Positions 33,466 through 54,428 of a DNA stretch of 64,000 bases are shown here, one piece after another. The stretch is from an uncultured Acidobacteriota bacterium (GTDB lineage: Bacteria; Acidobacteriota; Blastocatellia; RBC074), in NCBI GenBank assembly GCA_963796275.1, contig CAWCKY010000003.1, positions 1,312,001 to 1,376,000 of the forward strand, read 5' to 3'. A program made the translations under genes and the position numbers. Positions within the stretch are counted from its first letter, which is position 1. Each line of letters opens with the position of its first letter. The notes below the pieces were generated by a model that did not search any database, was not told the DNA's origin, and worked only from the letters and a program-made list of their open reading frames with translations.

Positions 33466-35723
<2,258 letters not shown>

Positions 35724-35725
35724 GC

Positions 35726-35772
35726 TCGGGAGGACGGGGAGAAGTAATCCCGCTCTCCCCGCCCTCCTGCCT
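35726..35772. terminator. Hairpin between convergent guaB and typA
   Basis: GGAGGACGGGGAGA // TCTCCCCGCCCTCC. Confidence 0.6.
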
Positions 35773-35773
35773 G

Positions 35774-37603
<1,830 letters not shown>

Positions 37604-37620
37604 TGATCTCAGATTTTATA

Positions 37621-37707
37621 GGAAAGCGGAACAAAAAAGGCAAAAAGACGCAGAAGGGATAAAATTTTGTCTATTTCGCCGTTTTTTGCCGGTTTTTCTT
37701 CTTCTTC
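37621..37707. repeat. Degenerate GGCAAAA-type palindromic element
   Basis: GGCAAAAAGACG // CGTTTTTTGCC. Confidence 0.5.
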
Positions 37708-37726
37708 AATAGATATTTGACGAAGC

Positions 37727-37741
37727 TGAAATTGATATTCA
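37727..37741. promoter_or_regulatory. Fur-like 7-1-7 box
   Basis: TGAAATT-G-ATATTCA upstream of a ferritin-like gene. Confidence 0.45.
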
Positions 37742-37861
37742 TTCAAATTATTCGCCACGCCTGCGTGTTGATTGACACCGCAGCACACGGTCGATATTTT
37801 TGATTAGTTACATTGAGCAATAATAAATAGCGGTTTTGAATCCAATAGAAGGAGTGGAAAT

Positions 37862-38338
37862 ATGGCAGTACAAAATGCGAATGCGAATGTGATCGAATCC
37901 CTCAATAAAGCACTATCGCTGGAGTACTCAGCGGTCATCCAATACAACCAACATCGCTTCCTGCTGACCGGTAAGGATCGACTTGTTTATGCCGACTTTT
38001 TTCGCGATTCGAGCAAAGAGGCGCACAAACACGTGAATAACCTGGGCGACAAGATAGTGGCGCTCGGCGGAGTTCCGACGGTTGAGCCGGGAGTCATTCA
38101 CCAGGCGACATCTCTTGCAGATATGTTGAAGCAGGACCTGGAACTCGAACGAGAAGCGCTCCAGGCATATCTCAAAGCGTGGGAGGCTTCGGAAAGCGAT
38201 CGACCGCTACGGTTCTGGTTGGAAGATATCATCCGTAGCGAGCAGCTACATATCGACGAACTCGAGAAGCTCACTTCCGAACGCGAAGTCCGCTCGGATC
38301 GCGTGAACCGCGAGATTCGATTCCGCGGAGTCAGTTAA
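37862..38338 (+). CDS. Ferritin-like (bacterioferritin/Dps-type) protein
   Basis: [38 protein letters not shown] di-iron pattern. Confidence 0.85.
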
Positions 38339-38702
38339 TCGCGCTTCTCGCCTGATCATCAGTTTGAACAGCGGGTTGGGTCGCCGGCAGAATCGCTTGC
38401 GAATCCGACCCGCGTTGTGCAAATTCAATCACCTGGGCCGCGGAGCCAGGCGTAATCCTGCGTTCTTCGATGTGATTGCGGGTGCGTGAGAGCAACCGCT
38501 GCAACTGACCTATCTTGTCGGCGGCGATCGGTATAGTCTTCTGCTTCTGCCAACCTAAAACCTCATGCCAAGTGGATAACTGAAGCGCAACGATATCCTC
38601 TCCATCGCACTCATAGCACACAACTTCGAGCCGCGTCGCGGCCATCCCAGCATCCAGGCTTCCGATTACTTCGCGCTTTTCCAATCCCATATTCATTCTC
38701 AA
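38331..38702 (-). CDS. Hypothetical protein
   Basis: 123-aa ORF ([18 protein letters not shown]) with sigma70-like promoter upstream. Confidence 0.6.
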
Positions 38703-38740
38703 AAGGGGCCCTGCTTATCTACCTTGCTTATCTATCCTAT

Positions 38741-38816
38741 AGATTATTGCTATTAGATTATTGCTATTAGCTTATCGCTTTGATCATTGCTTTTGATCAT
38801 TGCTATAAATTATTGC
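38741..38816. repeat. Tandem 13-14-nt repeats (GATYATTGCT core, about 6 units)
   Basis: AGATTATTGCTATT x2, AGCTTATCGCTTT, GATCATTGCTTTT, GATCATTGCTATA, AATTATTGC. Confidence 0.8.
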
Positions 38817-38840
38817 AGTTTCAAAACTTTCATTTCGTTC

Positions 38841-38893
38841 TTGAATTTCGTTTTCAACTAGACAAATTATATAATCAACCGGGCTAGAGTCAA
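38841..38893 (-). promoter_or_regulatory. Sigma70-like promoter with Fur-like box near the start site
   Basis: Minus strand TTGACT-N16-TATAAT then TTGAAAACGAAATTCAA. Confidence 0.55.
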
Positions 38894-39010
38894 GAGGAGA
38901 TAACGGGTAAGAGCAGAAAAAGGTGAATGATGGTATTTCTGATTGCGCATTGTGGACACTTTCATTAAATTTAGGGATGAGCATAAATCTGAAAGGAAGG
39001 GGGGGGAAAT

Positions 39011-39292
39011 ATGGCTGAGGTAATCAAATGCGAACGTTGCGGGCAGAACCTGCCGGGATTGGAAAAAGCGCCATTCGGAAGCGCGCTGGGCAAAAAGATA
39101 CACGAGCAGGTTTGTCAGGCTTGTTGGAAGGCATGGCTTGCGACGCAGAATCAATTGATTAATCATTATGGTTTGAGCACGATCAACCCTGAGCATCAGC
39201 AGTTTCTGATTCAAAATATGGAGGCATTTCTCTTCGGTAGCGGGGAGCAAGCGAAGATCGACGAGAGTTTGCAGGGAACAATTTCGCATTGA
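39011..39292 (+). CDS. yggX: Fe(II)-trafficking / oxidative damage protection protein YggX
   Basis: LGKKIHEQVCQACWKAWL..QNQLIN...FL.QNMEAFLF. Confidence 0.85.
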   Translation: MAEVIKCERCGQNLPGLEKAPFGSALGKKIHEQVCQACWKAWLATQNQLINHYGLSTINPEHQQFLIQNMEAFLFGSGEQAKIDESLQGTISH

Positions 39293-39455
39293 GCTGGCGA
39301 TCGGTTGAGCTGGAGAACACGGATAGCCGGGCGAAAGAAATGGTAAATTGACAAGGGAGGCCCTGACGTATATCTTTCGCCGGTTGATCTATAGGATCGT
39401 TTATCAGGGGTTCGCAGCATAAGTTTGCAGGATAAGCATAAGATTGTTGGAGTTT

Positions 39456-40106
39456 ATGAAGAACGAGAAATATGTGGGCATCGCGCCCGATGATGACAAT
39501 GATATAAAGGTAATCGATGATCTTTCGGTATTGCGCGGAGGAGATGAAGGGCCGGCAGGTCTGGTGGGCGAAATGCGCTCACTCTTACGAGATATAGTCT
39601 TTGCAGGCGTGATAGCCATTTTGATTGTGGTCTTTGTCGTCCAACCGGTGAGAGTTGAAGGGCAGAGCATGATGCCCAAACTGCACGATCAGGACCGCAT
39701 TTTCGTTAATAAATTCATCTATCCGCTGCGCGAGTGGCTTGGCGACCGGTATCCCATTAAACGCGGTGATATCGTTGTTCTGCTCTTCCCCAATGATCCG
39801 TCGAAATCATACATCAAGAGGGTGGTTGGGTTGCCGGGTGAGAGAGTTGAAATCCACGACGGCAAGCTCTTCATCAATAATCAGCAGATAGATGAGCCCT
39901 ACCTTGATGCGACGTACCTTTCGCACGACTCAACCCCGACTCCCGTGGAAGTGACATCTCATCATTACTTCGTTATGGGTGATAATCGGAACTACAGTAG
40001 TGACAGCCGCAGTTGGGGCCTCGTACCTGAAAAATACATCTATGGCAAGGCCATCTTCCGTTACTACCCGTTTATGCCGTTTGAGCGTGTAGGCAAGATT
40101 GAATAA
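39456..40106 (+). CDS. lepB: Signal peptidase I
   Basis: [38 protein letters not shown]. Confidence 0.93.
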
Positions 40107-40115
40107 GTCCGAAAT

Positions 40116-40205
40116 TTGGGAAAACGAATAGACAAAGAAGGGCAAAACTGGCAAAAGCCTGGAGAGTTTGCCTCTTTTGCCCTTCTTTGTCCGTTTTGTT
40201 TCCAA
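40116..40205. repeat. GGCAAAA-type palindromic element
   Basis: Perfect 17-bp arms GACAAAGAAGGGCAAAA (40131) / TTTTGCCCTTCTTTGTC (40175). Confidence 0.85.
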
Positions 40206-40243
40206 TGCCCCATACCAATCGAAAAAGATCAGCAAAATGATCT

Positions 40244-41521
40244 ATGGTGAGAAATCTTCGTCTATTTTTTGAGCTCTTCTGGCAGCCATTGACATCGCTT
40301 AAACGATTGCGCGATCGCGCGCCCGTCGGATTTGCGCTCACCGCGGCTTGGCTCGTGACGATGGTCTATGTGCTGATCGCCGTCGCGTTGGGTGGTTACG
40401 CTCTCTCAGCCGGGCGCGGCGTTCGGATGGCGCGTCGCATATACGGGGGGATTTTAGGGGAGATAGTTCACATCTGGATGGACAGCTTTTTACAGGCTGC
40501 AATGTGGGCGACCTTGATCGTCTTATTTATTTCGGTTATCTATGTGCCGTTCGCCATTCTGATCGCAAATCTGTTCGAACGGCGCGCCAGTTATTCGCTG
40601 GTTATCCGTGAGGAGTTCGCGTCGACGGTCTCTTGTGCTCTGGCATCGCTCTCCGTCTCCCTGTTAATTACGATACTTCCCGCAGCGGTCATTGGCTGGC
40701 AAAGCACCATACTACCGAGCGGCGCCGCGGGCGGGTATCTTTTCCTGTTGGCCTTGATTCCGGTGCCGATCTTTGCGGCGTTCATGACGCTCGCAATCGG
40801 GACCGTATTCCGGATCAGCTGGCTGGCCGCGACTTTTACGAGCCTCCTGTCATTCTTGACGCTGATCGGGATGATCCTCCTAATGCAGGCCGCGACATTC
40901 ATCTGTACCTCGCCTTTCCTTCTCCTGCTCCTCCTGTTTTTGCTGCGAGACCAGATCGACGATTTTATGAAGTCGGCACGGGCGCGCCAGTCGTTCAAAC
41001 AGAACCTCGAGGCCGCGACGCTCAACCCGGCGGACTCATCCGCCCATTACAATCTGGGGCTGCTTTATCAAACGCGCGGAGAGGATGAAGCCGCCGCAGG
41101 CGCTTTCCGTAAAGCAGTTGAGATCGATAGCCTGGAGACCGATGCGCATTATCAACTCGGACGCATTGCCAGGCAGCAGGGAAGGTTCGATGAAGCGATC
41201 GCCCATTTCGAGAGAGTCGTACAGCAGAACTCCAATCACAGCCATCACGAGGTTTGGCGCGAGACGGGGCTCGTATATTATGAAGCCGGGCAATACAAGG
41301 ATGCTCTCGCGATGTTCGATAAATTTTTGGGCGAGCGGCCTTCGGATGCGCAGGGCCGCTACTGGCGCGGGATGACTCTTTATCAATTGGGGCGACCCGC
41401 CGAGGCATCACTGGAGATGCAGGAGTGCATAGAAGCGGTCAAGACATCTCCGGCATATAAATATCGCACTGAGAGGCAATGGCTTCACCAGGCGGAGAGT
41501 TTTTTGCGCGAAAGGAAGTAA
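40244..41521 (+). CDS. Yip1-like membrane domain plus C-terminal TPR protein
   Basis: Several TM helices then [20 protein letters not shown] repeats. Confidence 0.8.
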
Positions 41522-41533
41522 TGCGTGGGGATC

Positions 41534-41628
41534 GCCACAAAAAAGTCACAAAACTTAGGTACAAAGGTAGGGGATGGAATAAGTCACTCTCCGGCGCCTT
41601 CCTGTTTTATCTTTGTGTTTTTTGTTGC
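41534..41628. repeat. CACAAAA-type palindromic element
   Basis: GCCACAAAAAAGTCACAAAA // TTTGTGTTTTTTGTTGC. Confidence 0.55.
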
Positions 41629-41656
41629 AACCTCTCGCAATCCGTAGGGGGAGTGA

Positions 41657-42850
41657 ATGATAAATAATGCGGTTCTCGCGCTCGAAGATGGAAAGGTATT
41701 TCGCGGGCGCGGCTGGGGCGCCACTGGCGAGCGCTTCGGCGAAATAGTTTTCAATACATCTATGATGGGTTATCAGGAGATCCTTACCGATCCCTCCTAT
41801 GCCGGTCAGATCGTAACCATGACCTATCCGTTGATTGGAAACTACGGGGTGAACTTCGAAGACATCGAGTCGCGCCGGCCGTTTGTGGAGGGGTTCGTCG
41901 TTCGCGAGTACTCTGAGGTCAGCTCCAACTGGCGCGCGCGCATCTCACTTGATGAATATCTCAAGCGTCAAGGAATCGTGGGTATATCCGATATCGATAC
42001 GCGTGCGCTGGTTCGGCATATCCGCGAAAAGGGCGCAATGCGCGCCTGCCTTTCATCGATCGATCAGGACGAGAAGAGGCTCGTCGAAAAAGCGAAAAAC
42101 GCTCCCCACATGGTGGGTCGTAACCTGGTAGATGAGGTCACTTGCGGCGATCCTTATCATTGGTCGGAAGTTGTAGACGAACAGACGACGCTCGACCCGC
42201 TCACCGCCGTTCGCAAAGAGGCTGACAGTTTGCTGGTGCCGGGAGAAGAGCCTTTCCGGGTGGTAGCTTACGATTTTGGTATCAAGTACTACATTCTGCG
42301 CTATCTCGAGGCATTCGGCTGCCATGTCACGGTCGTGCCGGCTCGCACTTTGGCCGACGATGTACTGGCGCTCGCACCGGATGGCATCTTTCTTTCAAAC
42401 GGGCCGGGAGACCCCGCGGCGCTGCCGGGAATCGTCGGTGAGGTGAAGCACCTAATCGGCGCGGCGCCGGTCTTCGGAATCTGTCTCGGTCATCAATTAC
42501 TTGGTCTGGCATTCGGAGGAAAGACTTACAAGCTCAAGTTCGGTCACCGCGGAGGCAACCAGCCCGTTAAGAATTTGCAGACAGATCGTATAGAAATCAC
42601 ATCCCACAACCATGGGTTCGCGGTCGATCCTGAAAGTTTGAATCCCGGCGAAATAGAACTGACTCATTTCAATCTAAACGACAACTGCCTCGAAGGTTTT
42701 CGCCACAGATCCCTCCCTATATTTTCGGTGCAATACCATCCCGAAGCGGGCCCCGGGCCGCACGACGCGACCTATCTTTTCCGCGAGTTTATCGCAAAGA
42801 TGCGCGAACACCGCGATCAGCTTAAAAGGATCGTGCAGACGAAAAATTGA
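41657..42850 (+). CDS. carA: Carbamoyl-phosphate synthase small subunit
   Basis: [38 protein letters not shown]. Confidence 0.97.
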
Positions 42851-42875
42851 AAATCATGTTTACCGAGGAGAAGAG

Positions 42876-43622
42876 TTGAATATCTCCGCGACTATTATCG
42901 TCCGTAACGAAGAGATCAATATCGCGGCGGTCTGCGAAACGGTGGCCTGGGCGGACGAACTCATCATCGTCGATTCGGACTCGACGGACCGCACGGTCGA
43001 GATCGCGCGGCAGTACACCGACAAAATCTTCAACCGGCCCTTTCGCGGTTACAAAGACAAACACGAATTCGCGGATTCGCAGACTACCGGCGATTGGATT
43101 TTCTGGATCGATGCCGATGAAAGAGTCTCGCCGGAGTTGCGCGAATCGATTGATAACCTGAGGCTTAGTGATCCGGATACTCTGCCCGACGGTTTTCGCA
43201 TCGCGCGGCGCACACAATACCTGGGACGCTGGATCGGGCACTCCGGGTGGTATCCCGATTACCAGATGCGGCTCTATCGAAAGGCCTCAAGTTATTGGGA
43301 TGGCGTCTCTCCCCACGAGACGGCGCGCGTTCGTGGGCGGATCGAGACGTTACCCGGCCAGTTCTTCCATTACACAATCCGCGATCTGAGCGAGCATCAC
43401 CGAGTGCTGGATGAATACACGACGCTTGCGGCCGAATATCATCTTCGGAAAAATAAACTCGTCAGCGGAATTCAAATCTTCACCCTCTCGATTGCCGCTT
43501 TTCTCCGCACCTACTTGGTCAAACAAGGCTTCCGCGATGGCGTCCCGGGGTTAATTATCGCGATGTTCACGGCGTACAGTGTCTTCCTCAAATACGCCAA
43601 GATATGGGAAAGAGGTAAGTGA
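42876..43622 (+). CDS. Glycosyltransferase family 2 (WaaE/LgtF-like)
   Basis: [35 protein letters not shown]. Confidence 0.9.
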
Positions 43623-43882
43623 TGATGGCTGCTCTGTTCAAATCAGGATAGAGTCCTGAGATATCTATGAGCTATTTATAAATGTCGCTACCAGAGCATA
43701 TATCCCGTAATAATTTATTTTGAATTTCAACCGTCACATTGGGTCATGAATATGATTTCGCTCTGGAAATGAACCGACTTCATTTGATATGATGCAGGAT
43801 ACTATCACGCACCTCCCGCCCACGGTTGAGCGCGATCGTACTCAAGTCTGAACGGCTGAGATATCTCGAGGATGATTGATAA

Positions 43883-44071
43883 TTTTGCGCGCGCCCGCCA
43901 CGCACTTTACGCAGGCGCGCGCCACCTCCGAGTGCGTTCAAAGCACCAATCGCACTCGGGTTTCAAGCGCGCTTAACAACGGCATTTTAACGAGCGCGCT
44001 CGAATTATCTCTACGTATTCATGACGTCTGAACTTGCCCCGTGTCGGATTACCTGAAAATAAAAATTCTCC
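43883..44071. repeat. Structured repeat unit, copy 1 (candidate ncRNA)
   Basis: Three hairpins; direct repeat of 44121-44311. Confidence 0.75.
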
Positions 44072-44120
44072 GAGAATTTCCTACTAAAGGCGACTTGGAT
44101 AGTATTAGCGGATAGCGATC

Positions 44121-44311
44121 TTTTGCGCGCGCCCGCCTTGCACTCTAATGCAGGCGCGCGCCCCGCCGAGTGCGCTATGCGCCTAATCGCACTCGGGCTC
44201 GAGCGCGCGTAACAACGGCATTTTAACGCGCGCGCTCGAGAAAATCCTTACGTATGCATGACGCCTTGAGCCACGATGTTGTCGGATCACCTGAATATTA
44301 AAATCCTCTCC
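44121..44311. repeat. Structured repeat unit, copy 2 (candidate ncRNA)
   Basis: Same stems, variable loops, compensatory changes relative to copy 1. Confidence 0.75.
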
Positions 44312-44510
44312 ATTTTGATTATATTGTACGGGACGATTGGTATGACAATATCTCAAACCTCGCATAGTACCTAACCTGTTGCCTTTCTCCATCATTCGGC
44401 CTATAAGTTCTCCAAGAAAAAATAATTTTAACAGGACTGTTCCCCGACTCCGAGACAGCCCGCAGTCCTGTGATCAATAGATATAAAAGTCCCAGCTTTG
44501 GAGGATCTAT

Positions 44511-47500
44511 ATGAGACACACACTTAAATTGATCGTTACGATCTTGATTGTGACGTTTGTGGGAACCGCTACTGCATTGGCACAGGCATCGAGTTCAACG
44601 GCAGAACTGCGCGGACAGATTACTGACGCCAACGGCGCGGTCATTCCCGGCGCGAAGGTTACTCTTCTCGACAAGGCCAAAGGGGTGAGCCGCACTGCCA
44701 CCGCCGATGTTGACGGTAATTATGCTTTTATAGGCTTGCTGCCGAGCTCTTATGATTTAAAAGTCGAAGCGCAGGGGTTTGCCGCCTCCAACACGGCGAC
44801 GGTTGAATTGACCGTCGGCCAACAGGCGAACATACCGTTTAAGCTGAGCGCCGGTGGGGTTCAGGCGACGATAGACATAGTTGCAGGCGCAGAGGTGGTT
44901 GAAACTAACCGGACAGAACAGTCTTCAACTATAGGCGCGAGACAGATCAACAGTCTGCCCATCAACCGCCGCAACTTTCTCGACTATGCGCTGCTCACGC
45001 CGGGTGTAGCCGATTCGGATAACATAGCCGATTCTTCCGATTTTCGTGTGGCTCAGACTCCACAGAGCGGGTTGTCTTTCGGCGGGAATAACGGTCGCGG
45101 GAACATGGTATCGGTGGATGGCGCGGAGACGCTCGGAGCTTCTGGCGGCGTGCAGGCTACGATCAGCCAGGAAGCTGTGCAGGAGTTTCAGGTTGTGCGC
45201 AACAGTTATAGCGCGGAGCTCGGCGGGGCTTCCGGCGGCGTGGTCAATATAGTATCAAAGTCAGGGGCCAACAGTTTCCATGGCAGCGCCTTCGGACTCT
45301 TTCGCGATCAGCGCTTCGACGCGCGTAATTTTTTCGACTACAACCCGAATGGCAAATCGTCCTTCAATCGCCAGCAATATGGAGGGTCAGTCGGCGGGCC
45401 GATCAAACAGGACAAGATCTTCTTTTTCTCCTCGGTTGAGCGGCTGAGCCAGGACAGGACTACATTCGTCAACCTGCCGATCAATACGAACCCGACGGCT
45501 TCGCAGACCGCGCTGATCAGTTATCTGAGTGGCTTCCCAGGATTACCATCAATGGTCGCTACAGGGTTGCAGACTGCTTTAACAACCACCCCGCAATCTA
45601 ACCCGGGCACCGTCAATCTCTTTACCAACGCGAGCGGGCAGTTCCCATTTAGTGATGATCAGACGCAGTTTTCGGCGCGTATCGATCGCAACTTCACCGA
45701 CCGCAGCAGTGGCTATCTCCGGTTCAACCTGACCGATTCAGTCTTCGAGAATCAGGCTGCAGGTGCACTAACTGCCGTCTCGCGCGGTCGCACAGCGGAT
45801 ACTTTCAATGGAGGCGTGGTCGGGTCACACAATTATCAGTTCAGCCCGACGACGTTTAACGAGCTGAAGCTGCAATTCAGTTATACTCGTGCGGGCTTCC
45901 TGCCGAACGATCCGAACGGACCGGAGTTGAACATCGAGGGATTCGGTTTCTTCGGCCGTGACATCTTCTTGCCTTCTCGCTCAATCGATCGTCACTTCGA
46001 TGTATATGACAACGTCACGAAGGTTATGGGCGACCACACCTTGAAATTCGGCGGTTCGATGTTCTTCAACCGGCTGGGTACAAGCAATGAGACCTATCTG
46101 GGCGGGCGATTCAGTTTCCAACCTGTTATTCCGCTCGGCAATGTCATATCGGGGAGTGTTGGAATGCAAAACCTGACATTATTGCGAAATTTCCTGCAAA
46201 CCAATCAGCCTAGTTTGTTGGCGAACCTGAATGCGCCGATAAATTCTATTCAGGCATTCAACTTGGGATTACCAGCATCCTTCCAGGGGGGCTTCGGCGA
46301 GCCGAATGCCTTTTCTTGGACGAATCGCTACGCATTCTATGTTCAAGATACGTGGAAGCTGCGGCCAAGTTTCACATTGAACTACGGGTTGCGTTATTCG
46401 CTTCACGACGAGCCGTTATTCATTCCTACGTACAGGAAGGACTTTCAGCCGCGAGTCGGCTTCTCATGGGACCCGCGGCGCGACGGCAAAACGGTGATTC
46501 GTGGCGGTGCGGGCATCTTCACCGGCTTTCTCAACAACTCGATTGCAAACGTGACTTCAGAATTGTCCGGGACGGGCGATCCGACCAACATCTTCATAGT
46601 CCTTGCGACACCGTCGTCGGCGCCGTCGTCCTTCGCTGTCTATCAGACGCTCTTGCAGCGCGGAGTGTTGGGGACCAGGCCGATATCGTTGTCTGATGTA
46701 TCGGGTCCGCCGCTCAATATTAACCCGGGTCCGGGTCAGCCACTGGAGGTGCGGTTCCGCCTTGGGCCAAACTATCGCAACCCGACGACCTACCAGGCGA
46801 GCCTCGGCGTTCAACGCGATCTCGGCGCAGGATTTTCCCTGGACCTGAGCTACCTTTATGCCCGCGGTATACATCTGTCGCGGAACCGCGATACCAATCA
46901 AATCAGCCAAACAGGTTTCAATCCGACATTCAATACTACCTGCTTCGTTCGCAACCCCAGCACCGCACCGCCGTGCATCGGGGGATCAACCGACCTCCGC
47001 GACCGGAATCGATTCCAGGACAATGTCTATGAGCAGACGGCCAATTCGTTCTATCACGGCTTCACCGTGCAGGTGCAGCGACGTTTTTCCACGAACTTCA
47101 GTCTTAACTCGCATTACACGCTGGCCAAGTCGATCGATGAAGTGACCGATTTCAACAGTGACTTTTCGGCACAGAATCCATTGAATCTGAACCTCGATCG
47201 ATCGCTATCAGCCTTCGATCAGCGCCATCGCTTTGTGGTCAGCGGCGTCTTCCAAAGCCCGTTTCAGAACGTGGCGTTGAAGCAATGGGTTTTCGCACCG
47301 ATCTTCGTCGGCCAGAGCGGCCGGCCCTTCAATTTGTTGCTGGGTTCCGATGCCAACAATGACGGGCGTTCCCAGAGCGATCGCCCGGGGCAGGCTGGAC
47401 GCAACACCGGCCTGGGCGAGGCGTATTACAGCTTCGATACGCGTCTCGGTCGCCGCTTCTTCGTCAAGGAGAGCCGTTTCCTCGAATTGACCTTCGAGGT

Positions 47501-47681
47501 CTTCAATCTGTTCAATCGCTCGAATTTGCTTGGCATCAATAATGTTGTCGGTGCCAGCTACATCGGTATAACCGACTACGATGCGCGCGGCAGTCGCGAT
47601 CGGAGGCCGACCGAACCACTAGGCTTCACGTCGGCGGCCGATGCGCGGCAAATGCAGTTCGGCGCACGGTTCATGTGGTAA
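44511..47681 (+). CDS. Oar-like TonB-dependent receptor with carboxypeptidase-regulatory-like N-domain
   Basis: Signal peptide, [49 protein letters not shown]-terminal [11 protein letters not shown]. Confidence 0.92.
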
Positions 47682-47692
47682 AGACGTAAGGT

Positions 47693-47768
47693 TTCAAGAC
47701 GAAGGGTCAAGATCGAGGGGTCAAAGATGCTACACTCTAGCTTCTTTGACCCTTGATCTTTTGATCCA
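47693..47768. repeat. Heptameric palindrome (TCAAGAN / NTCTTGA-like)
   Basis: GGGTCAAGAT..GGGTCAAAGA // TCTTTGACCCTTGATC. Confidence 0.7.
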
Positions 47769-47891
47769 TCGTGTTGAGACTGTTATTTACTGCATCGACA
47801 TTGTATTGACAAATCTGAATTGCTCGGTCTTCCGCCGATACGCGGCGGGGAGGCTGAACAGGTCCATATTAACAACGGGAGAAGCATTTAA

Positions 47892-48692
47892 ATGTCGGCG
47901 AAGCGATCCATCATTTTGTTCGTATTGATAGCAACGATTTTCTGTATAAGCTGCGGGAGCAATGAAGAGGCGGTTGTCCCCGCCGGGCCGCTATGGAAGC
48001 CATCAGGAAATGAAGGCAATATTACGGGAGTCATATCTTTCAATGGCGAGGTTCCGGCACCGCGTAAAATGGAGATGAGCCAGGATTCGGCCTGCGAAAA
48101 TATGGGCGAGTCTTTCTTTGACGACGTAATCGTCAGCGACGGCAAACTGAAGAATGTCTTTGTCTATGTCAAGAACGGACTACCGAAAGCCTCTTTCGAG
48201 ATACCCGCTGCCGAAGTATCGCTCGATCAAAAGGGCTGCCAATACGTCCCGCGCGTTCTCGGGGTCCAGACGGGACAGGCGTTGAAGATCCTCAATTCCG
48301 ATCCGACCGATCACAATATTCATCCGACTCCGAAAATGAATAGGGAATGGAATCAGTCGCAGTTGGCGGGCCAGGGGCCGATCACCCGCAAGTTCACAAA
48401 AGAGGAGACCCTGTTTCAGGTAAAATGCAACAAACATCCGTGGATGACGGCCTGGCTGGGCGTGCTCTCACACCCGTTCTTCGCCGTCAGCGGCGCCGAT
48501 GGGTCGTTCGCAATCAAAGGCTTGCCGTCGGGTGAATATGAAATCGAAGCCTGGCACGAAAAGTACGGCGTCAGGACGCTGAAAGTAAAGGTGAATGAAC
48601 GCGCTGATTCGACTGCCGATTTTACGTTTAATGCGGATACGGCATACAAAGAGTCGTCATTAAAAATACAACCGGCAGTAGTCATTCCGTGA
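47892..48692 (+). CDS. Lipoprotein with cupredoxin-like and carboxypeptidase-regulatory domains
   Basis: Lipobox ISC, LDQKGCQYVP, NSDPTDHNIH, KCNKHPWM, EAWHE. Confidence 0.78.
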   Translation: MSAKRSIILFVLIATIFCISCGSNEEAVVPAGPLWKPSGNEGNITGVISFNGEVPAPRKMEMSQDSACENMGESFFDDVIVSDGKLKNVFVYVKNGLPKASFEIPAAEVSLDQKGCQYVPRVLGVQTGQALKILNSDPTDHNIHPTPKMNREWNQSQLAGQGPITRKFTKEETLFQVKCNKHPWMTAWLGVLSHPFFAVSGADGSFAIKGLPSGEYEIEAWHEKYGVRTLKVKVNERADSTADFTFNADTAYKESSLKIQPAVVIP

Positions 48693-48711
48693 TAAATAAC
48701 CGGGGTTTGCT

Positions 48712-49332
48712 GTGCCACCGACTCTGACGAAAAATAAGACCGGAGAGTCTTCGATTGCCGAACGCACTCCGCCGCCTGAAGGCTATCGCATCGCGATCTT
48801 GCTCGCGCTCGTCAGCATCACAATGCTGTTTCTTGCGTTGACGAGCGCATACATCTTCAATCGCGCGAATACCCAGCCTATCGTGATGCCCCGTGTCTTG
48901 TGGTTGAGCACGACCCTGATTATCGCCAGCAGCTTTACGATGGAGTTCGCGCGCCGTTCCCTGAGACTTAGGCACGAACGCCGGTTTAAAACCTGGCTGG
49001 TCGTCACGATGATGCTCGGGTTGGGTTTTTTGGGCGCACAGATCGCTGCATGGCGAGATCTGGTTGAGAGCGGGTTTTACATCAATCGAAATTTTTACAA
49101 CGGCTACGCGTATATCAGAAATTTCCACAGCAGCTATGCTTATATTTTTACCGGGCTACACGGCGTGCATCTTCTGGGGGGACTCGTTGCCCTGGCTTAT
49201 CTCACGATGCGCGATCAAGCGAGCTGGACGGCGGTCCGGAGACGCGTCTCGGTCGATGTGACGGCGCTTTACTGGCACTTCCTGGATGGGCTTTGGATCT
49301 ATCTTCTGGCCCTTCTATTTTTCTGGAAATGA
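48712..49332 (+). CDS. Heme-copper oxidase subunit III-like
   Basis: TMLFLALTSAY, FTGLHGVHLLGG, YWHFLDGLWIYL. Confidence 0.88.
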   Translation: MPPTLTKNKTGESSIAERTPPPEGYRIAILLALVSITMLFLALTSAYIFNRANTQPIVMPRVLWLSTTLIIASSFTMEFARRSLRLRHERRFKTWLVVTMMLGLGFLGAQIAAWRDLVESGFYINRNFYNGYAYIRNFHSSYAYIFTGLHGVHLLGGLVALAYLTMRDQASWTAVRRRVSVDVTALYWHFLDGLWIYLLALLFFWK

Positions 49333-49341
49333 GGAAACGAG

Positions 49342-49593
49342 ATGATTGTCGGACCAGTTTTGATTGCTTGCGCGGCGATTTCTCTGCAAACCATCACCGG
49401 CTATGCATACGTTCTCTGCCCGACGTGCAAAGCGAGCATTTCCGCTGACGGAAACGCTGGGGAGCTTGCGCAGACGATAAATTCGGCTATCCTGGTTTTA
49501 CTCGTGCCGACGCTTCTCATCATCGGCGGACTTATCAGATTAGTTTTTAAATATGTCAATTTCAGATACTTCCGACTCTCAACGCGATTTTGA
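49342..49593 (+). CDS. Small CxxC membrane protein (3' end affected by indel at 49568)
   Basis: CPTCK...INSAILVLL. Confidence 0.6.
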   Translation: MIVGPVLIACAAISLQTITGYAYVLCPTCKASISADGNAGELAQTINSAILVLLVPTLLIIGGLIRLVFKYVNFRYFRLSTRF

Positions 49594-49979
49594 ATAGCAT
49601 CAGTGCGGTCCTGCTAACAATCGGGTTTGTCTTTATTCGTCGCAAGAATATTAAAGCACATCGAGCCTGCATGATCGCCGCCTTTGCCACGTCAACATTA
49701 TTTCTTATCTCCTATCTCATTTATCACTATAACCACGGCGCGACGGGCTTTTCCGGAGAAGGAATAGTTCGATTTGTATATTTCACGGTTCTGATCACCC
49801 ACACGATACTGGCTGCGGCGATCGTACCGCTGGTTTTCATCACCTTTTCCCGGGCATTGAGAAAGAAGTTCGACAAGCACAAAAAGATAGCTAGATGGAC
49901 ATTACCGTTGTGGCTTTACGTTTCAGTGACGGGCGTGTTCGTATATTTGATGCTCTATCAACTCTACCCCGGGCGTTGA
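49553..49979 (+). CDS. DUF420 (CtaM-like) membrane protein; extra base at 49568
   Basis: Repaired N-terminus [15 protein letters not shown]; [34 protein letters not shown]. Confidence 0.88.
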
Positions 49980-50683
49980 ACTCGAGATGCGATCATTTGA
50001 CGCACGCTCTCGACCAGTTCATCGATATTCTCATCTCTGTATCCCTGCGCGCTGACTGGCGGAAGCACTTCCAGGAAGACATTTCCGGGCTCGCATTTTT
50101 TTGCGCCCTTCCCCAGCACCAGACCGGTATTGTTGATCACTACCGGCGCAATCGCCACCCCCGCTTCGATCGCCATATAGAATATTCCTTTTTTGAACTC
50201 AGCGACGCGGCCGTCAGCGCTCCGTGTGCCTTCGGGAAAAGCCATCAAAGAATGGCCGCGGCGGAGTTCTTCTGCGCCCCGCTTAGTGCTGGCGATCGCG
50301 CTTTCCCGGTTGCTCCTGTCGATCGTGACGACATGAGCGAGCGGAAACCCCTGTTTGAAAAACGGGACCTTTAACAACTCCTTTTTTGCGATCGCCCCGA
50401 CGTTGTGTCCCAGATGAGCGAACATCAAAGGCGGGTCGAGATTGCTCTGGTGATTGGCGACGAATACGTATGCCCGATCGCGATCCAGTTTATCGACCCC
50501 CTTTACGTGAACACGCGCCCCCGCCGACCAGAGATAGATGCGGCAGGCGAATTTGGCGTAAGGAAAAATGAAATCTTCGACGCCGAATACCGTCCGCAAG
50601 ATGTGGCCGATGAAGATCAGCGGCGGCCCCATCGTCAGTAGTAATAGTCCGGCAACCAGGAATGTCCAGTAGTAACGCAACAT
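49964..50683 (-). CDS. plsC: 1-acyl-sn-glycerol-3-phosphate acyltransferase
   Basis: NHQSNLD, AKKEL, FPEGTRS, FKKG; start ATG 50683. Confidence 0.88.
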
Positions 50684-50685
50684 AC

Positions 50686-50766
50686 ATAATTGATAATTGA
50701 TAATTCGTATACACTCGGGCAATAATCTTTGCGAATTATCAATTATTCATTATTCATTATCCATTA
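50686..50766. repeat. Heptameric palindrome (ATAATTG / CAATTAT) filling the glgC-plsC gap
   Basis: Perfect 15-bp core ATAATTGATAATTCG (50693) / CGAATTATCAATTAT (50732), extended by TCATTAT units. Confidence 0.88.
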
Positions 50767-52044
50767 AATTATCGTTCCATCCGTAATGGTCGCGCCTTTG
50801 GGAATGATGACGATGCCTTCGCGTATAAAATAATTTCCGCCGTCGTGGTGTTCGAGCCCCGCTTCATTGAGTATCCGCACGTTCGAACCGATGCGCACGT
50901 TCTTATCGATGATTGCCTTGCGTATGTGGGTGTTTTCGCCGATACCTATCCACGGCAACCCATCCCTCCGGTCATCCGCCAACTCCTGCAGCGTTTGATA
51001 AAAATCGGCACCCATCATCAGAGAATGTTCGATAATGCTATGGCTCTCGATACGCGAACGTATACCGATCACGCAGTGGTTGATCGAGACGCGGTTGAGG
51101 ATGCAGCCTTCCGAGATCAGCGAATCTTTGATCTCGCAATCGATGAATTTGGTGCCGGGCAGATACCGCGGGCGAGTGAATATCGGCGCGTCGGCATTAA
51201 ACAGATTGAACTTCGGCATAATCGACGCCATATCCAGATTTGCGTGATAAAACGTGCTGATTGTTCCGATGTCTTCCCAATAATCGTCGAAGAGATACGC
51301 CTGAACATTATGGCTTTCCATCGATGCCGGCAACACTTCGCCGCCGAAATCGGTGTAATGCGTCCCGGTAAGCATCTTGCGCAGCACGTCGAATTTGAAC
51401 AGATAGACGCCCATCGAGGCCAGGAAGGGGCGGCGCATAGCCTCATCCTCGCTCAGCCCCAATTTCGAGGTGTCAACGAACATCGCGGGCAATTGGGTGG
51501 CGGGCGGTTTTTCGCGGAATTCGACGATGTGCCCCTGGTCATTTGTTTTAAGTAATCCGAAGTTGGGTGCGCGCGATTCTTCAACCGGGATCACTGAGAC
51601 GGTGACATCTGCCTTAGTCTCCACGTGGCGTTCGAAAAACTTCTGATAATCCATCTGATAGAGATGGTCGCCGGAGAGGATCAGGACGTCTTTCGGATTG
51701 AAGTCGTCGATGTGCATCATCACCTGGCGCACAGCATCGGCGTTTCCCTGAAACCAATTTCTGTTCTCAGGCGTTTGCTCCGCCGCCAATATCTCGACGA
51801 AGCCGTCCGAGAAGCGGCTGAAGCGGTATGTCCGGGCTATATGCCTGTTGAGCGATGCCGAATTGAATTGCGTCAGCACAAAAATGTAATGAAAGCCTGA
51901 ATTGATACAGTTGGAAACCGTAATATCGATAAGACGGTATTTGCCGCCGAGCGGGACCGCAGGTTTGGAGCGCTGTTGAGTGAGCGGGAAGAGGCGAGAC
52001 CCCTGGCCGCCGCCGAGTATTATGGTTAAAACCTGATTGATCAT
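50764..52044 (-). CDS. glgC: Glucose-1-phosphate adenylyltransferase
   Basis: [43 protein letters not shown]. Confidence 0.96.
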
Positions 52045-52167
52045 AAGGACTCCTTGATCATAAATTACCCCAGCTTTTATCCTTTGCTCATTTGATTGTC
52101 TGAGCTAAGCTTGAAGGCGCCTGAGCATAAGAGAGCAAAATACGTTTTTCAAGGGACGGGAAGACCG

Positions 52168-53073
52168 ATGTTTTCTATCTCGCCGATTGTGGCAGCAGCG
52201 CTCGGCCGTCGAAATGCGGTCGTCGCGCTCGAATCGACAGTCATAGCGCACGGACTGCCTTCGCCGTACAACCTCGAAACGGCGCGGGCTTGCGAGAGTG
52301 CCGTCTCCCAATCCGGAGCCGTTCCGGCGACCATCGGAATTATCGACGGGGTGCCTCTGATCGGTATGGACCAGGATCAGCTCGCCGAAATCGCCGCGCG
52401 CAAAAATGTCGTTAAAGTAAATCTTGCAAATATAGCTTCGGTCATCGCCCGGAGGAAATGGGGTGCGACGACCGTCTCATCGAGTTTGCATCTGGCGCAG
52501 ATGGCTGGCATCAGAGTTTTTGCAACGGGAGGCATCGGGGGAGCGCATCGCGGCGCAGGCGAGAGCTTCGATATTTCGGCCGACCTCAACGCTCTCTCTC
52601 GTTATCCCGCAATCACCGTCTGCGCAGGCGCGAAGGCGATCCTCGATCTGCCGAAAACACTCGAGCTGCTAGAAACGATGGGGGTACCGGTCATAGGTTA
52701 CCAGACTGATGAGCTGCCGGCATTCTATTCTCGGGCGAGCGGGCTGAGGCTAGATTTAAGCGCTGATGACGCCGATGACATCGCCGCAGTCGCCCATCAA
52801 CACTGGCGATTGGGGTTTCCCTCAGCTGTGCTCGTGGTTGTCCCCGTGCCGCTGGAAGACGAGATTCCGGAGCCTGAGATCAGAGATGCGATAGATAGAT
52901 CGCTCAGCCTGGCCGCAGCGCGAGGGATCAGCGGGAAGGCTGTTACACCATTTTTGCTCTCGCAAATTGCGGAATCGACTGGAGGCCGGGCCCTGCGCGC
53001 GAATATAGCCCTTCTGCGCAACAACGCGCGAGTGGCGGGCGAGATTGCAATAGCTCTATCGAAAGGGGAGTAA
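52168..53073 (+). CDS. psuG: Pseudouridine-5'-phosphate glycosidase
   Basis: [46 protein letters not shown]. Confidence 0.93.
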
Positions 53074-53076
53074 TCG

Positions 53077-53571
53077 ATGAACCTCGATGACATACGAAAT
53101 CTTTTCAACTACACCGAATGGGCGAACCACCTCGTGCTCGATGCAGTTGAGAGGCTGAGCGAAGAGCAACGGAAACACGACTTCAAAATCAGCCACGGCT
53201 CGATACAGGGCACGCTCTTGCATACGGCCGGCGCCGAATGGCTCTGGCTCGAGCGGTGGCGCGGCACCTCGCACACGGGCCTCTGGGCCGCCGAAGATTT
53301 CGTAGGCATACCGGCAATTCGCGCGCGCTGGCAGCTGATTGAAGCAGAGCGCCAGTCTTTCATCGATAGTTTGAGCGAAGATGAATTAAGCGGTGATCTG
53401 AGCTATCGGAATCTCAAGGGAGAGCCATTTACTCTGCCGCTCGTCGCGCAGATGCAGCACGTGGTTAATCATTCGTCGCAACATCGCGGACAGGCGGTGG
53501 GAATGATCCGCCAGCTCGGCGTGCAGCCTCCCGCGGTCGATCTGCTTTATTATTTGATCCAGGGGAAATGA
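53077..53571 (+). CDS. DinB family protein
   Basis: YTEWAN, GSIQGTLLH..AEWLW, HVVNHSSQHRGQ. Confidence 0.9.
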   Translation: MNLDDIRNLFNYTEWANHLVLDAVERLSEEQRKHDFKISHGSIQGTLLHTAGAEWLWLERWRGTSHTGLWAAEDFVGIPAIRARWQLIEAERQSFIDSLSEDELSGDLSYRNLKGEPFTLPLVAQMQHVVNHSSQHRGQAVGMIRQLGVQPPAVDLLYYLIQGK

Positions 53572-53585
53572 AAATTTAGCCAGGG

Positions 53586-53636
53586 CAAAATTCAAGCGGA
53601 GCATCGGGTGTCCAGAGGCTCCGTCTGAATTTTGAA
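53586..53636. terminator. Hairpin downstream of dinB
   Basis: CAAAATTCAAGCGGAGC // GCTCCGTCTGAATTTTG. Confidence 0.5.
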
Positions 53637-53654
53637 TCTATCGGAAAGATCGTT

Positions 53655-54428
53655 TTGAAGATAATCGCCATCGCTCTCAATACATTTCGCGAATCGGTGC
53701 GTGACCGCGTTCTCTACAACCTCGTGCTTTTTATGCTGCTGCTCGTCATCGCATCGATTGTCATGGGCCGCATCGCTGTGGGGCAGGAAGCGCAGATTGT
53801 GATCGATGTTGGCCTCTCGGCGATGACGATCTTCGGCCTGCTGATCGCCATATTCATCGGCATCGGCCTGGTAGCGAAGGAGATCGAAAAAAGGACCATC
53901 GCAGTTATACTCGCCAAACCGGTTCGCCGCTCGACCTTCGTTCTGGGTAAATATTTTGGTTTATGCTTGACGCTGTTCGTAAACACAGCAGTGATGACCG
54001 TCGCCATTATGCTCGCGCTGCTCTATGTCAAAAGCGGGTTTGACCCGACGCAAGTAAGGCTATGGCCGGGCGCTTTTTTGATCTTCCTCGAGCTCGCGAT
54101 CATCACCGCCGTCGCGCTGCTATTCTCTTGCTTCTCGTCGCCCGCGCTTTCAGCCCTCTTCACCTTGTTGATCTTTCTCATCGGCCGCTGGAGTCCAGAT
54201 TTGAAACTCCTCGCCGAAACCTCCACTTCGATCGTCACACGCATGCTCTGCCGCGCGCTTTATCACCTGCTGCCGAATCTGGCGAATTTCAATTACATCA
54301 ACGAAATTGCGCGTGGTGAGGCAGTACCATCGCGGATGATCGCCGCCAACGCTATTTATGCGAGCTGTTATGTCGTGGGATTGTTGGCTGCATCCGTGCT
54401 GATATTCGAGCGTAGGAATTTTAAATGA
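53655..54428 (+). CDS. ABC transporter permease (PilI-like)
   Basis: IALNTFRESVRDRVLY, KEIEKRT..ILAKPV, GKYFG, FERRNFK. Confidence 0.85.
   Translation: MKIIAIALNTFRESVRDRVLYNLVLFMLLLVIASIVMGRIAVGQEAQIVIDVGLSAMTIFGLLIAIFIGIGLVAKEIEKRTIAVILAKPVRRSTFVLGKYFGLCLTLFVNTAVMTVAIMLALLYVKSGFDPTQVRLWPGAFLIFLELAIITAVALLFSCFSSPALSALFTLLIFLIGRWSPDLKLLAETSTSIVTRMLCRALYHLLPNLANFNYINEIARGEAVPSRMIAANAIYASCYVVGLLAASVLIFERRNFK

Follow-up and report, generated by a model that had tools for sequence, protein, structure and literature searches.

What are the two similar stretches of about 190 nt that lie side by side in front of an outer-membrane receptor gene in the genome of an uncultured Acidobacteriota bacterium? 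Soil Acidobacteria carry hundreds of genes for TonB-type receptors, and to our knowledge almost nothing is known of their small RNAs and non-coding elements. A literature search on Acidobacteria at the level of listings and abstracts found no description of such an element. The window analyzed here is a 64,000-nt stretch of this genome, and a first-pass annotation of it had proposed a candidate new structured RNA, taking the two stretches as tandem sRNAs, as a tandem cis-regulator of the receptor or as an ssDNA-structured mobile unit. They are described here as a lineage-restricted candidate non-coding element that is real and apparently selected. The reading preferred below, to which a probability of roughly 0.4 is given, is that they are two paralogous, lineage-restricted genes for small structured non-coding RNAs that would be read from the minus strand.

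The two units are located in an intergenic region of 888 nt (43623–44510) between two plus-strand genes, namely a family-2 glycosyltransferase gene upstream (42876–43622, 248 aa) and an outer-membrane receptor gene downstream (44511–47681, 1056 aa, CarboxypepD_reg and OMP_b-brl_4 domains). The neighbourhood is of a housekeeping kind (typA, signal peptidase I, a TPR protein, carA, the glycosyltransferase, the receptor and COX3-like, plsC-like and glgC genes), and no transposase or integrase gene is found among the neighbours of the two units. Unit 1 (43883–44071, 189 nt) consists of three hairpins and a tail, and unit 2 (44121–44311, 191 nt) is its paralog; both are assigned to the minus strand by inference. 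In a BLAST search of the whole 9,456,497-base genome the two units matched each other at 80% identity (E 1.6e-37), and the other matches of unit 1 were 15–25 nt long with E values of at least 0.85. The unit-to-unit alignment has 89% column identity and contains six single-base indels. The direct repeat families at the locus are spaced by 236–239 bp, which agrees with the two direct copies about 238 bp apart that had been reported before. These earlier copies were also called tandem, which is correct in that two direct copies are adjacent; however, they are not joined head to tail, and the 49-nt spacer between them (44072–44120), which carries a weak minus-strand −10-like TTTAGT, is unlike between the copies. 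Tandem Repeats Finder called no array at the locus owing to this spacer. The ends of the units read TTTTGCGC... and ...AAAATYCTC[TC]C; neither terminal inverted repeats nor a common target sequence were found there, and the sequences flanking one copy are unrelated to those around the other.

Each unit forms three GC-rich hairpins with stems of 12, 9 and 12 pairs. The arms of stem 1 are GCGCGCGCC and GGCGCGCGC, and those of the 9-bp stem 2 are CCGAGTGCG and CGCACTCGG. In unit 1, hairpin 1 spans 43887–43922 (arms 43887–43898 and 43911–43922), hairpin 2 spans 43928–43959, with its stem closing a variable loop, and hairpin 3 spans 43962–44004, with 12 pairs and a loop of 19 nt. The counterparts in unit 2 are located at 44125–44161 (based on an inverted repeat and on folding), 44166–44196 (based on folding) and 44198–44240, where the stem bases are complementary at 12 of 12 positions. 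Between unit 1 and unit 2, stem 3 shows two double changes, T-A to C-G at 43962/44004 and T-A to G-C at 43973/43993; the three stems are therefore as the first-pass annotation had drawn them, including these compensatory pairs. Since complementarity is kept through two-sided changes, and since corresponding loops of the two units are of unequal length (12 versus 13 nt and 14 versus 13 nt), the sequences point to hairpin formation rather than to half-sites for a DNA-binding dimer. A small conserved block in unit 1 (44013–44027) could form a further hairpin of 4 bp, ACGU-7 nt-ACGU on the minus strand. The fold of the whole units is more stable than that of dinucleotide shuffles, with z = −2.8 and −2.3 for the plus strand and z = −2.6 and −1.8 for the minus strand; between one and nine of 200 shuffles fold as well as the units.

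Hairpins 1 and 3 have arms made of self-complementary (GC)n tracts that are able to pair in several registers (43887–44004 and 44125–44240). An alternative pairing joins the 3′ arm of hairpin 1 to the 5′ arm of hairpin 3 and encloses hairpin 2 (73–76%), and the arms of one unit are able to pair with those of the other. A 194-position covariance model built from both units (R1) scored unit 1 at 223.8 bits and unit 2 at 226.9 bits; owing to the self-complementary arms, it gave an extra match of 42.8 bits at the same locus, on the plus strand and between the units.

Both units are predicted to be non-coding. The six 1-nt indels break every reading frame that the units might share, as had been stated before, the ORFs over the units give Arg-rich translations that are not protein-like, and a tblastx search of the genome with the intergenic region as the query returned only self matches and unit-to-unit matches. 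Tandem repeats of type I toxin–antitoxin systems carry a small conserved ORF of about 18–50 codons per unit, and such a repeat, or any other small ORF, was rejected on the broken frames and on these translations. CRISPR arrays have short identical repeats of about 25–50 nt with unique spacers of similar size, whereas the present locus has two 190-nt units and one 49-nt spacer. No tRNA or tmRNA was found by a scan. Against Rfam 15, the best scores over 43000–45000 were 30.5 and 25.7 bits for IRES_L-myc, a eukaryotic family with a threshold of 60, and are regarded as GC-hairpin noise; no other family came close to its threshold. The earlier failure to recognize a known riboswitch, tRNA or CRISPR is thus borne out by the Rfam search, the tRNA/tmRNA scan and the repeat layout.

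Within the 9.46 Mb genome there are exactly two copies, adjacent to each other, according to BLAST, nhmmer, fuzzy stem patterns, R1 and a sub-model of hairpins 1–2 (R2). Relatives were searched in four sets of 60, 86, 150 and 40 genomes, which overlap. BLAST against 60 relatives gave only one 46-nt match to a GC stem (G049, E 2e-4); R1 gave a best E value of 0.007 at 20 bits in 86 genomes of the family, versus 224–227 bits for the real units, and none at E ≤ 0.001 in 150 genomes of the class; R2 gave none in 40 relatives. The search with a covariance model that had been suggested therefore returned no credible homolog from the family or class genomes. Furthermore, blastn against plasmid and phage collections gave no match. 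Among viral contigs, the stem-2 palindrome had 11 matches, to which the model fits in that hairpin only, apart from three weak GC-hairpin matches of at most 7 bits at other positions of these loci. Exact copies of the 18-mer of the stem-3 loop were found at least 14 times in the genome collection and at least 14 times in metagenomes, with unrelated flanks and at about the estimated chance number; these scans are blind to the metagenome relatives X3 and X4 described below, the loops of which differ by one base (unit 2) and by four (unit 1). With its filters off, R1 found a unit in none of the upstream regions of 19 orthologous receptor genes (63–81% identity), a position that the first-pass annotation had suggested checking; the best of the 19 loci, at 14.5 bits, was a U-tract terminator downstream of a gene in the relative G015. 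On these searches the element appears to be restricted to a species-level lineage. However, the genomes that represent the same genus are distant, with 79% protein identity for the glycosyltransferase, and the absence of the units from them therefore says little about close relatives. The framing as a new structured RNA family was too strong, because no homolog was found by these searches outside this species-level lineage.

Relatives that do carry the units were found over 43400–44900 among contigs from the metagenome DNA runs X3 and X4. Four DNA runs contain parts of this DNA, and for X1, X2 and X4 the interpretation is confined to the stretches covered by contigs. An X3 contig of 2241 nt bridges 43812–44900 with 83 substitutions and 24 gap positions (∼92% identity) and has both units in place; as judged from this contig, a related organism carries both units at the same place. 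Short X4 contigs share several of the X3 variants. Among the X3 substitutions listed, which are taken to be complete to 44225, one of 120 stem bases and 29 of 223 other bases are changed in 43883–44225 (n = 30, Fisher p = 3e-5). The corresponding numbers within the units only, again among the substitutions listed, are 1/120 stem bases and 23/174 other bases (p = 5e-5), and six of the listed substitutions fall in the spacer 44072–44120. The comparison of paralog with paralog gives a similar picture, with differences at four of 66 aligned stem bases versus 39 of 128 in the remainder (p = 5e-5). The sole stem change listed for X3, 43956 T>C in hairpin 2 of unit 1, gives a plus-strand A·C mismatch, which reads as U·G on the minus strand. 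The 17-nt loop of stem 3 had been called invariant and is indeed identical in the two copies here; however, X3 has four changes in it in unit 1 and one in unit 2, so that the term does not hold. The blocks of the tail, which had been called conserved, are present in both copies, but the motif TGTCGGATYACCTGAA has two X3 changes (44052 and 44055). For the block TACGTATNCATGACG no X3 change is listed in unit 1, and 44012–44026 of unit 1 is likewise without change among the X3 substitutions listed. Because the X3 substitutions avoid the stems, the hairpins, rather than the loops, appear to be maintained by selection.

The AT-rich stretch that follows the glycosyltransferase stop codon (43625–43750) is variable. 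The X3 contig skips 124 nt of it and has 93 other letters instead, and an X4 contig has it shortened, with 73 nt skipped; the adjoining units are kept in both X3 and X4. In addition, up to eight short X4 contigs from soil metagenomes match 43910–43971, which comprises the 3′ arm of hairpin 1 and hairpin 2, and some of them run into unlike sequence past 43971. These short contigs may represent variants from other strains or more distantly related elements.

The strand of a putative transcript was assessed from the stem positions that are not Watson–Crick pairs. There are three such positions: hairpin 1 has a mismatch that both units share, hairpin 3 of unit 1 has one at 43965/44001, and the third is the change seen in X3 at 43956. 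The earlier remark that A-C on the plus strand becomes G-U on the minus strand is true of all three. Hairpin 1 of unit 1 has 12 contiguous pairs on the minus strand, one of them U·G, versus 9+2 pairs and a C/A mismatch on the plus strand, with energies of −26.7 and −21.4 kcal/mol, respectively. Five of the six hairpins are more stable as minus-strand RNA, the sums being −126.1 versus −112.5 kcal/mol. With DNA parameters the minus strand is slightly favoured too (−81.6 versus −75.6 kcal/mol), and the whole-unit folding z-scores do not separate the strands. Owing to mismatches that are all compatible with G·U there, and to the more stable hairpins, the minus strand would probably be the transcribed one, although the pattern involves three positions only (one-sided p ∼0.125).

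A candidate minus-strand promoter of unit 2 is located at 44318–44348. It consists of TTGTCA (44348→44343), a 19-nt spacer and TATAAT (44323→44318), and is followed after 6 nt by GGAGAG; the TATAAT at this distance had been noticed before. The promoter scan covered spacers of 16–18 nt, and this 19-nt candidate was read by eye; a 2-nt deletion in X3 at 44328 would bring its spacer to 17 nt. For unit 1, only the weak TTTAGT lies upstream on the minus strand, and no convincing promoter was recognized. On the plus strand, X3 has a 13-nt insertion that splits the promoter-like site ahead of unit 1, and three substitutions in this site; no σ54 promoter was seen at the locus by eye. A U-tract follows none of the hairpins, whichever strand is read; hairpin 1 has AAAA after it on the minus strand and TTTT before it on the plus strand. 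A scan found no terminator-like site in 43623–44510. Such sites are no more common in 34001–54000 than in shuffles, and the scan of that stretch therefore says nothing about terminator usage.

If the units are minus-strand RNA genes, the candidate RNAs would be read away from the receptor promoter, as two products of about 190 nt or as one precursor of about 430 nt. The 5′ part of each RNA would be an AU-rich, weakly structured segment of about 65 nt bearing the conserved blocks, and the 3′ end would comprise the three very stable GC-rich hairpins, which might block degradation by 3′ exonucleases or offer a platform for protein binding. The earlier suggestion of tandem sRNAs accordingly keeps the selected hairpins, the G·U pattern and the −10-like box at unit 2 in its favour, and lacks a U-tract and a clear promoter of unit 1. 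Further points against it are the poor conservation of the 5′ part, where a seed would be expected to lie (X3 changes at 44052 and 44055), and the poor 19-nt spacer of the candidate promoter. Moreover, no U-tract terminator is present, whereas the relative G015 uses one: a canonical intrinsic terminator with a 13-bp GC-rich stem and six U residues lies right after its receptor ortholog (L078, 4735–4775), and U-tract terminators are thus predicted to be in use in the same family.

Tandem paralogous sRNAs that regulate outer-membrane receptors are known in Pseudomonas (PrrF1/PrrF2) and in E. coli (OmrA/OmrB). RusT of Caulobacter is reported to be an iron-responsive sRNA linked to outer-membrane receptors (PMC11005374). 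The present units resemble these sRNAs in comprising two diverged copies side by side in one intergenic region, in their link to a TonB-type receptor, in being non-coding and in their narrow lineage, and by analogy their arrangement is most like that of tandem paralogous sRNAs that lie near or act on TonB-type receptors. However, PrrF, OmrA/OmrB and RusT have mapped promoters, U-tract terminators and conserved seeds, and PrrF and RusT respond to iron, whereas the units have no U-tract, no Fur-box-like site above chance and a poorly conserved 5′ part. Control by a Fur box was rejected, as the consensus was matched at no more than 12/19 positions, a value reached or beaten by 170 of 300 shuffles. 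Pairing of the tail of either strand with the receptor leader was also rejected, the complementarity being not above that of shuffles.

The gene order around the units bears on an unlikely alternative in which the hairpins would act as single-stranded or cruciform DNA, as a relic or site of rearrangement, a recombinase or REP-type site, or a supercoiling-sensitive neighbour of a promoter. In the relatives G011 and G005, carA immediately precedes the receptor ortholog. In G020 and G004, the receptor ortholog is directly preceded by a different gene, whose ortholog in the present genome is located about 85 kb upstream of the locus, outside the window. The glycosyltransferase orthologs of relatives (65–80% identity) are sited at other loci; at 11 such loci, one of them from G004, a same-strand gene follows closely, carA is absent within 1.5 kb upstream, and no match to the window sequence was found downstream of these orthologs. 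Because the neighbours in relatives differ in these ways, comparison of gene orders indicates that the glycosyltransferase gene came between carA and the receptor gene in the present lineage, and that the units occupy that junction; the gene-order breakpoint lies within 41657–44510. An action at the DNA level would suit this exact position at the lineage-specific carA/glycosyltransferase/receptor junction, the conserved stems with free loops, as expected if a protein reads the stems, and the (GC)n arms with their several pairing registers. It is at odds with the presence of only two copies in 9.46 Mb, with unit ends that share neither terminal inverted repeats nor a target sequence, and with the lack of a nearby transposase or integrase and of plasmid, phage or viral relatives. 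Furthermore, the G·U pattern of one strand fits RNA better, although DNA parameters slightly favour the same strand.

Similarly, a dispersed REP, a MITE or an element derived from IS200/IS605 was rejected on the two copies at one locus and the lack of terminal inverted repeats, and the ssDNA-structured mobile unit proposed in the first-pass annotation is disfavoured by the same copy number and single locus together with the lack of matches beyond chance in plasmids, phages and viral contigs and the absence of transposase or integrase genes nearby. REP and REPIN sequences do share with the units GC-rich hairpins in AT-richer intergenic DNA, conserved stems, free loops and the possibility of a tandem arrangement. 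However, REPs are 20–40 nt long and occur in tens to hundreds of copies per genome, whereas the units are about 190 nt long, have three different hairpins and a tail, and occur twice at one locus.

About as improbable as an action at the DNA level is that the functional molecule is a plus-strand RNA, with the hairpins forming part of the glycosyltransferase 3′ UTR or of a long distal leader of the receptor mRNA and serving as a stabilizer or as an insulator against read-through. Plus-strand transcription probably does enter the units, because there is no canonical terminator between the glycosyltransferase stop codon and the receptor start codon. The glycosyltransferase genes of relatives are closely trailed by a same-strand gene, and an insulator could have been of help after the rearrangement; in addition, the plus-strand folds beat shuffles (z = −2.8 and −2.3). 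However, a plus-strand RNA would have A·C at all three stem mismatches, and a U-tract follows none of its hairpins. A role as a leader is, moreover, made unnecessary by a conserved proximal promoter downstream of the units, and such a leader is found at none of the 19 orthologous receptor loci.

This promoter candidate, TTGCCT-17-TATAAG on the plus strand (44379–44407), bounds the units and lies outside them, with 68 nt between the end of unit 2 and its −35 hexamer and with the unit upstream. Both hexamers are invariant across four aligned genomes, including three relatives without the units, and the homology with relatives is limited to 44337–44503 (70% over 167 nt in G002, shorter stretches in G001 and G011). 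It is most likely the receptor promoter, as predicted from this conservation. A riboswitch leader is expected after the promoter and ahead of the start codon, whereas the units precede the conserved predicted promoter and show no expression platform. Owing to the position of this promoter downstream of the units, and to their absence from the 19 ortholog loci, a riboswitch or 5′ leader of the receptor is disfavoured, and with it the tandem cis-regulator of the earlier proposal in the form of an RNA leader. Tandem riboswitch architectures of the NAD+-I (nadA) motif are reported from Acidobacteria (PMC6859854; PMC10702441), and the units are like them in having two homologous structured domains in series upstream of an acidobacterial gene. 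However, the units have no Rfam match, lie upstream of the predicted promoter rather than in a 5′ UTR, lack an expression platform, are not conserved at orthologs and consist of plain GC helices without conserved junctions or loops.

A neutral by-product, that is, a segment that was duplicated once, has no function and owes its similarity to recent common descent, is very unlikely. The occurrence in one lineage only and the free drift of the loops and tail motifs would be as expected of such a duplicate. However, substitutions avoid the stems about 15-fold, both between the paralogs and towards the ∼92% identical relative, and stem 3 has stayed paired through its two double changes. The duplication also predates the X3 split, because both units are present in X3, and the non-stem parts have diverged by about 30% while the stems are nearly identical.

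The least probable reading considered, a long shot, is that the units are founders of an undescribed class of structured RNA or RNA/DNA hairpins, which, by means of the self-complementary (GC)n arms, would switch between three hairpins and one extended helix, or pair between copies, and through this switch would control the receptor promoter or another target; if it were true, the diverging X4 contigs that match hairpins 1–2 would be further, more distant members.

In its present standing the element is a candidate at a single orphan locus, and no long-standing question is opened by it. If confirmed, the units would be a selected, lineage-specific structured pair that was born at a gene-order breakpoint beside a receptor gene, and thus a tractable case of how a young non-coding element originates and is retained.

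Two further observations concern the receptor genes. The predicted receptor leader contains a conserved hairpin with arms at 44431–44439 and 44463–44471; in G011 one of its pairs is changed on both sides from G-C to A-U, and two pairs become wobble pairs. By this comparison, it looks like a plus-strand stem-loop common to the orthologous receptor genes. In G002 (L085, 1–1664, minus strand), the gene divergent from the receptor ortholog is another receptor-type paralog, the N-terminal ∼390 aa of which match well over 100 places in the present genome at 28–51% identity; these matches are interpreted as reflecting a very large expansion of the receptor family.
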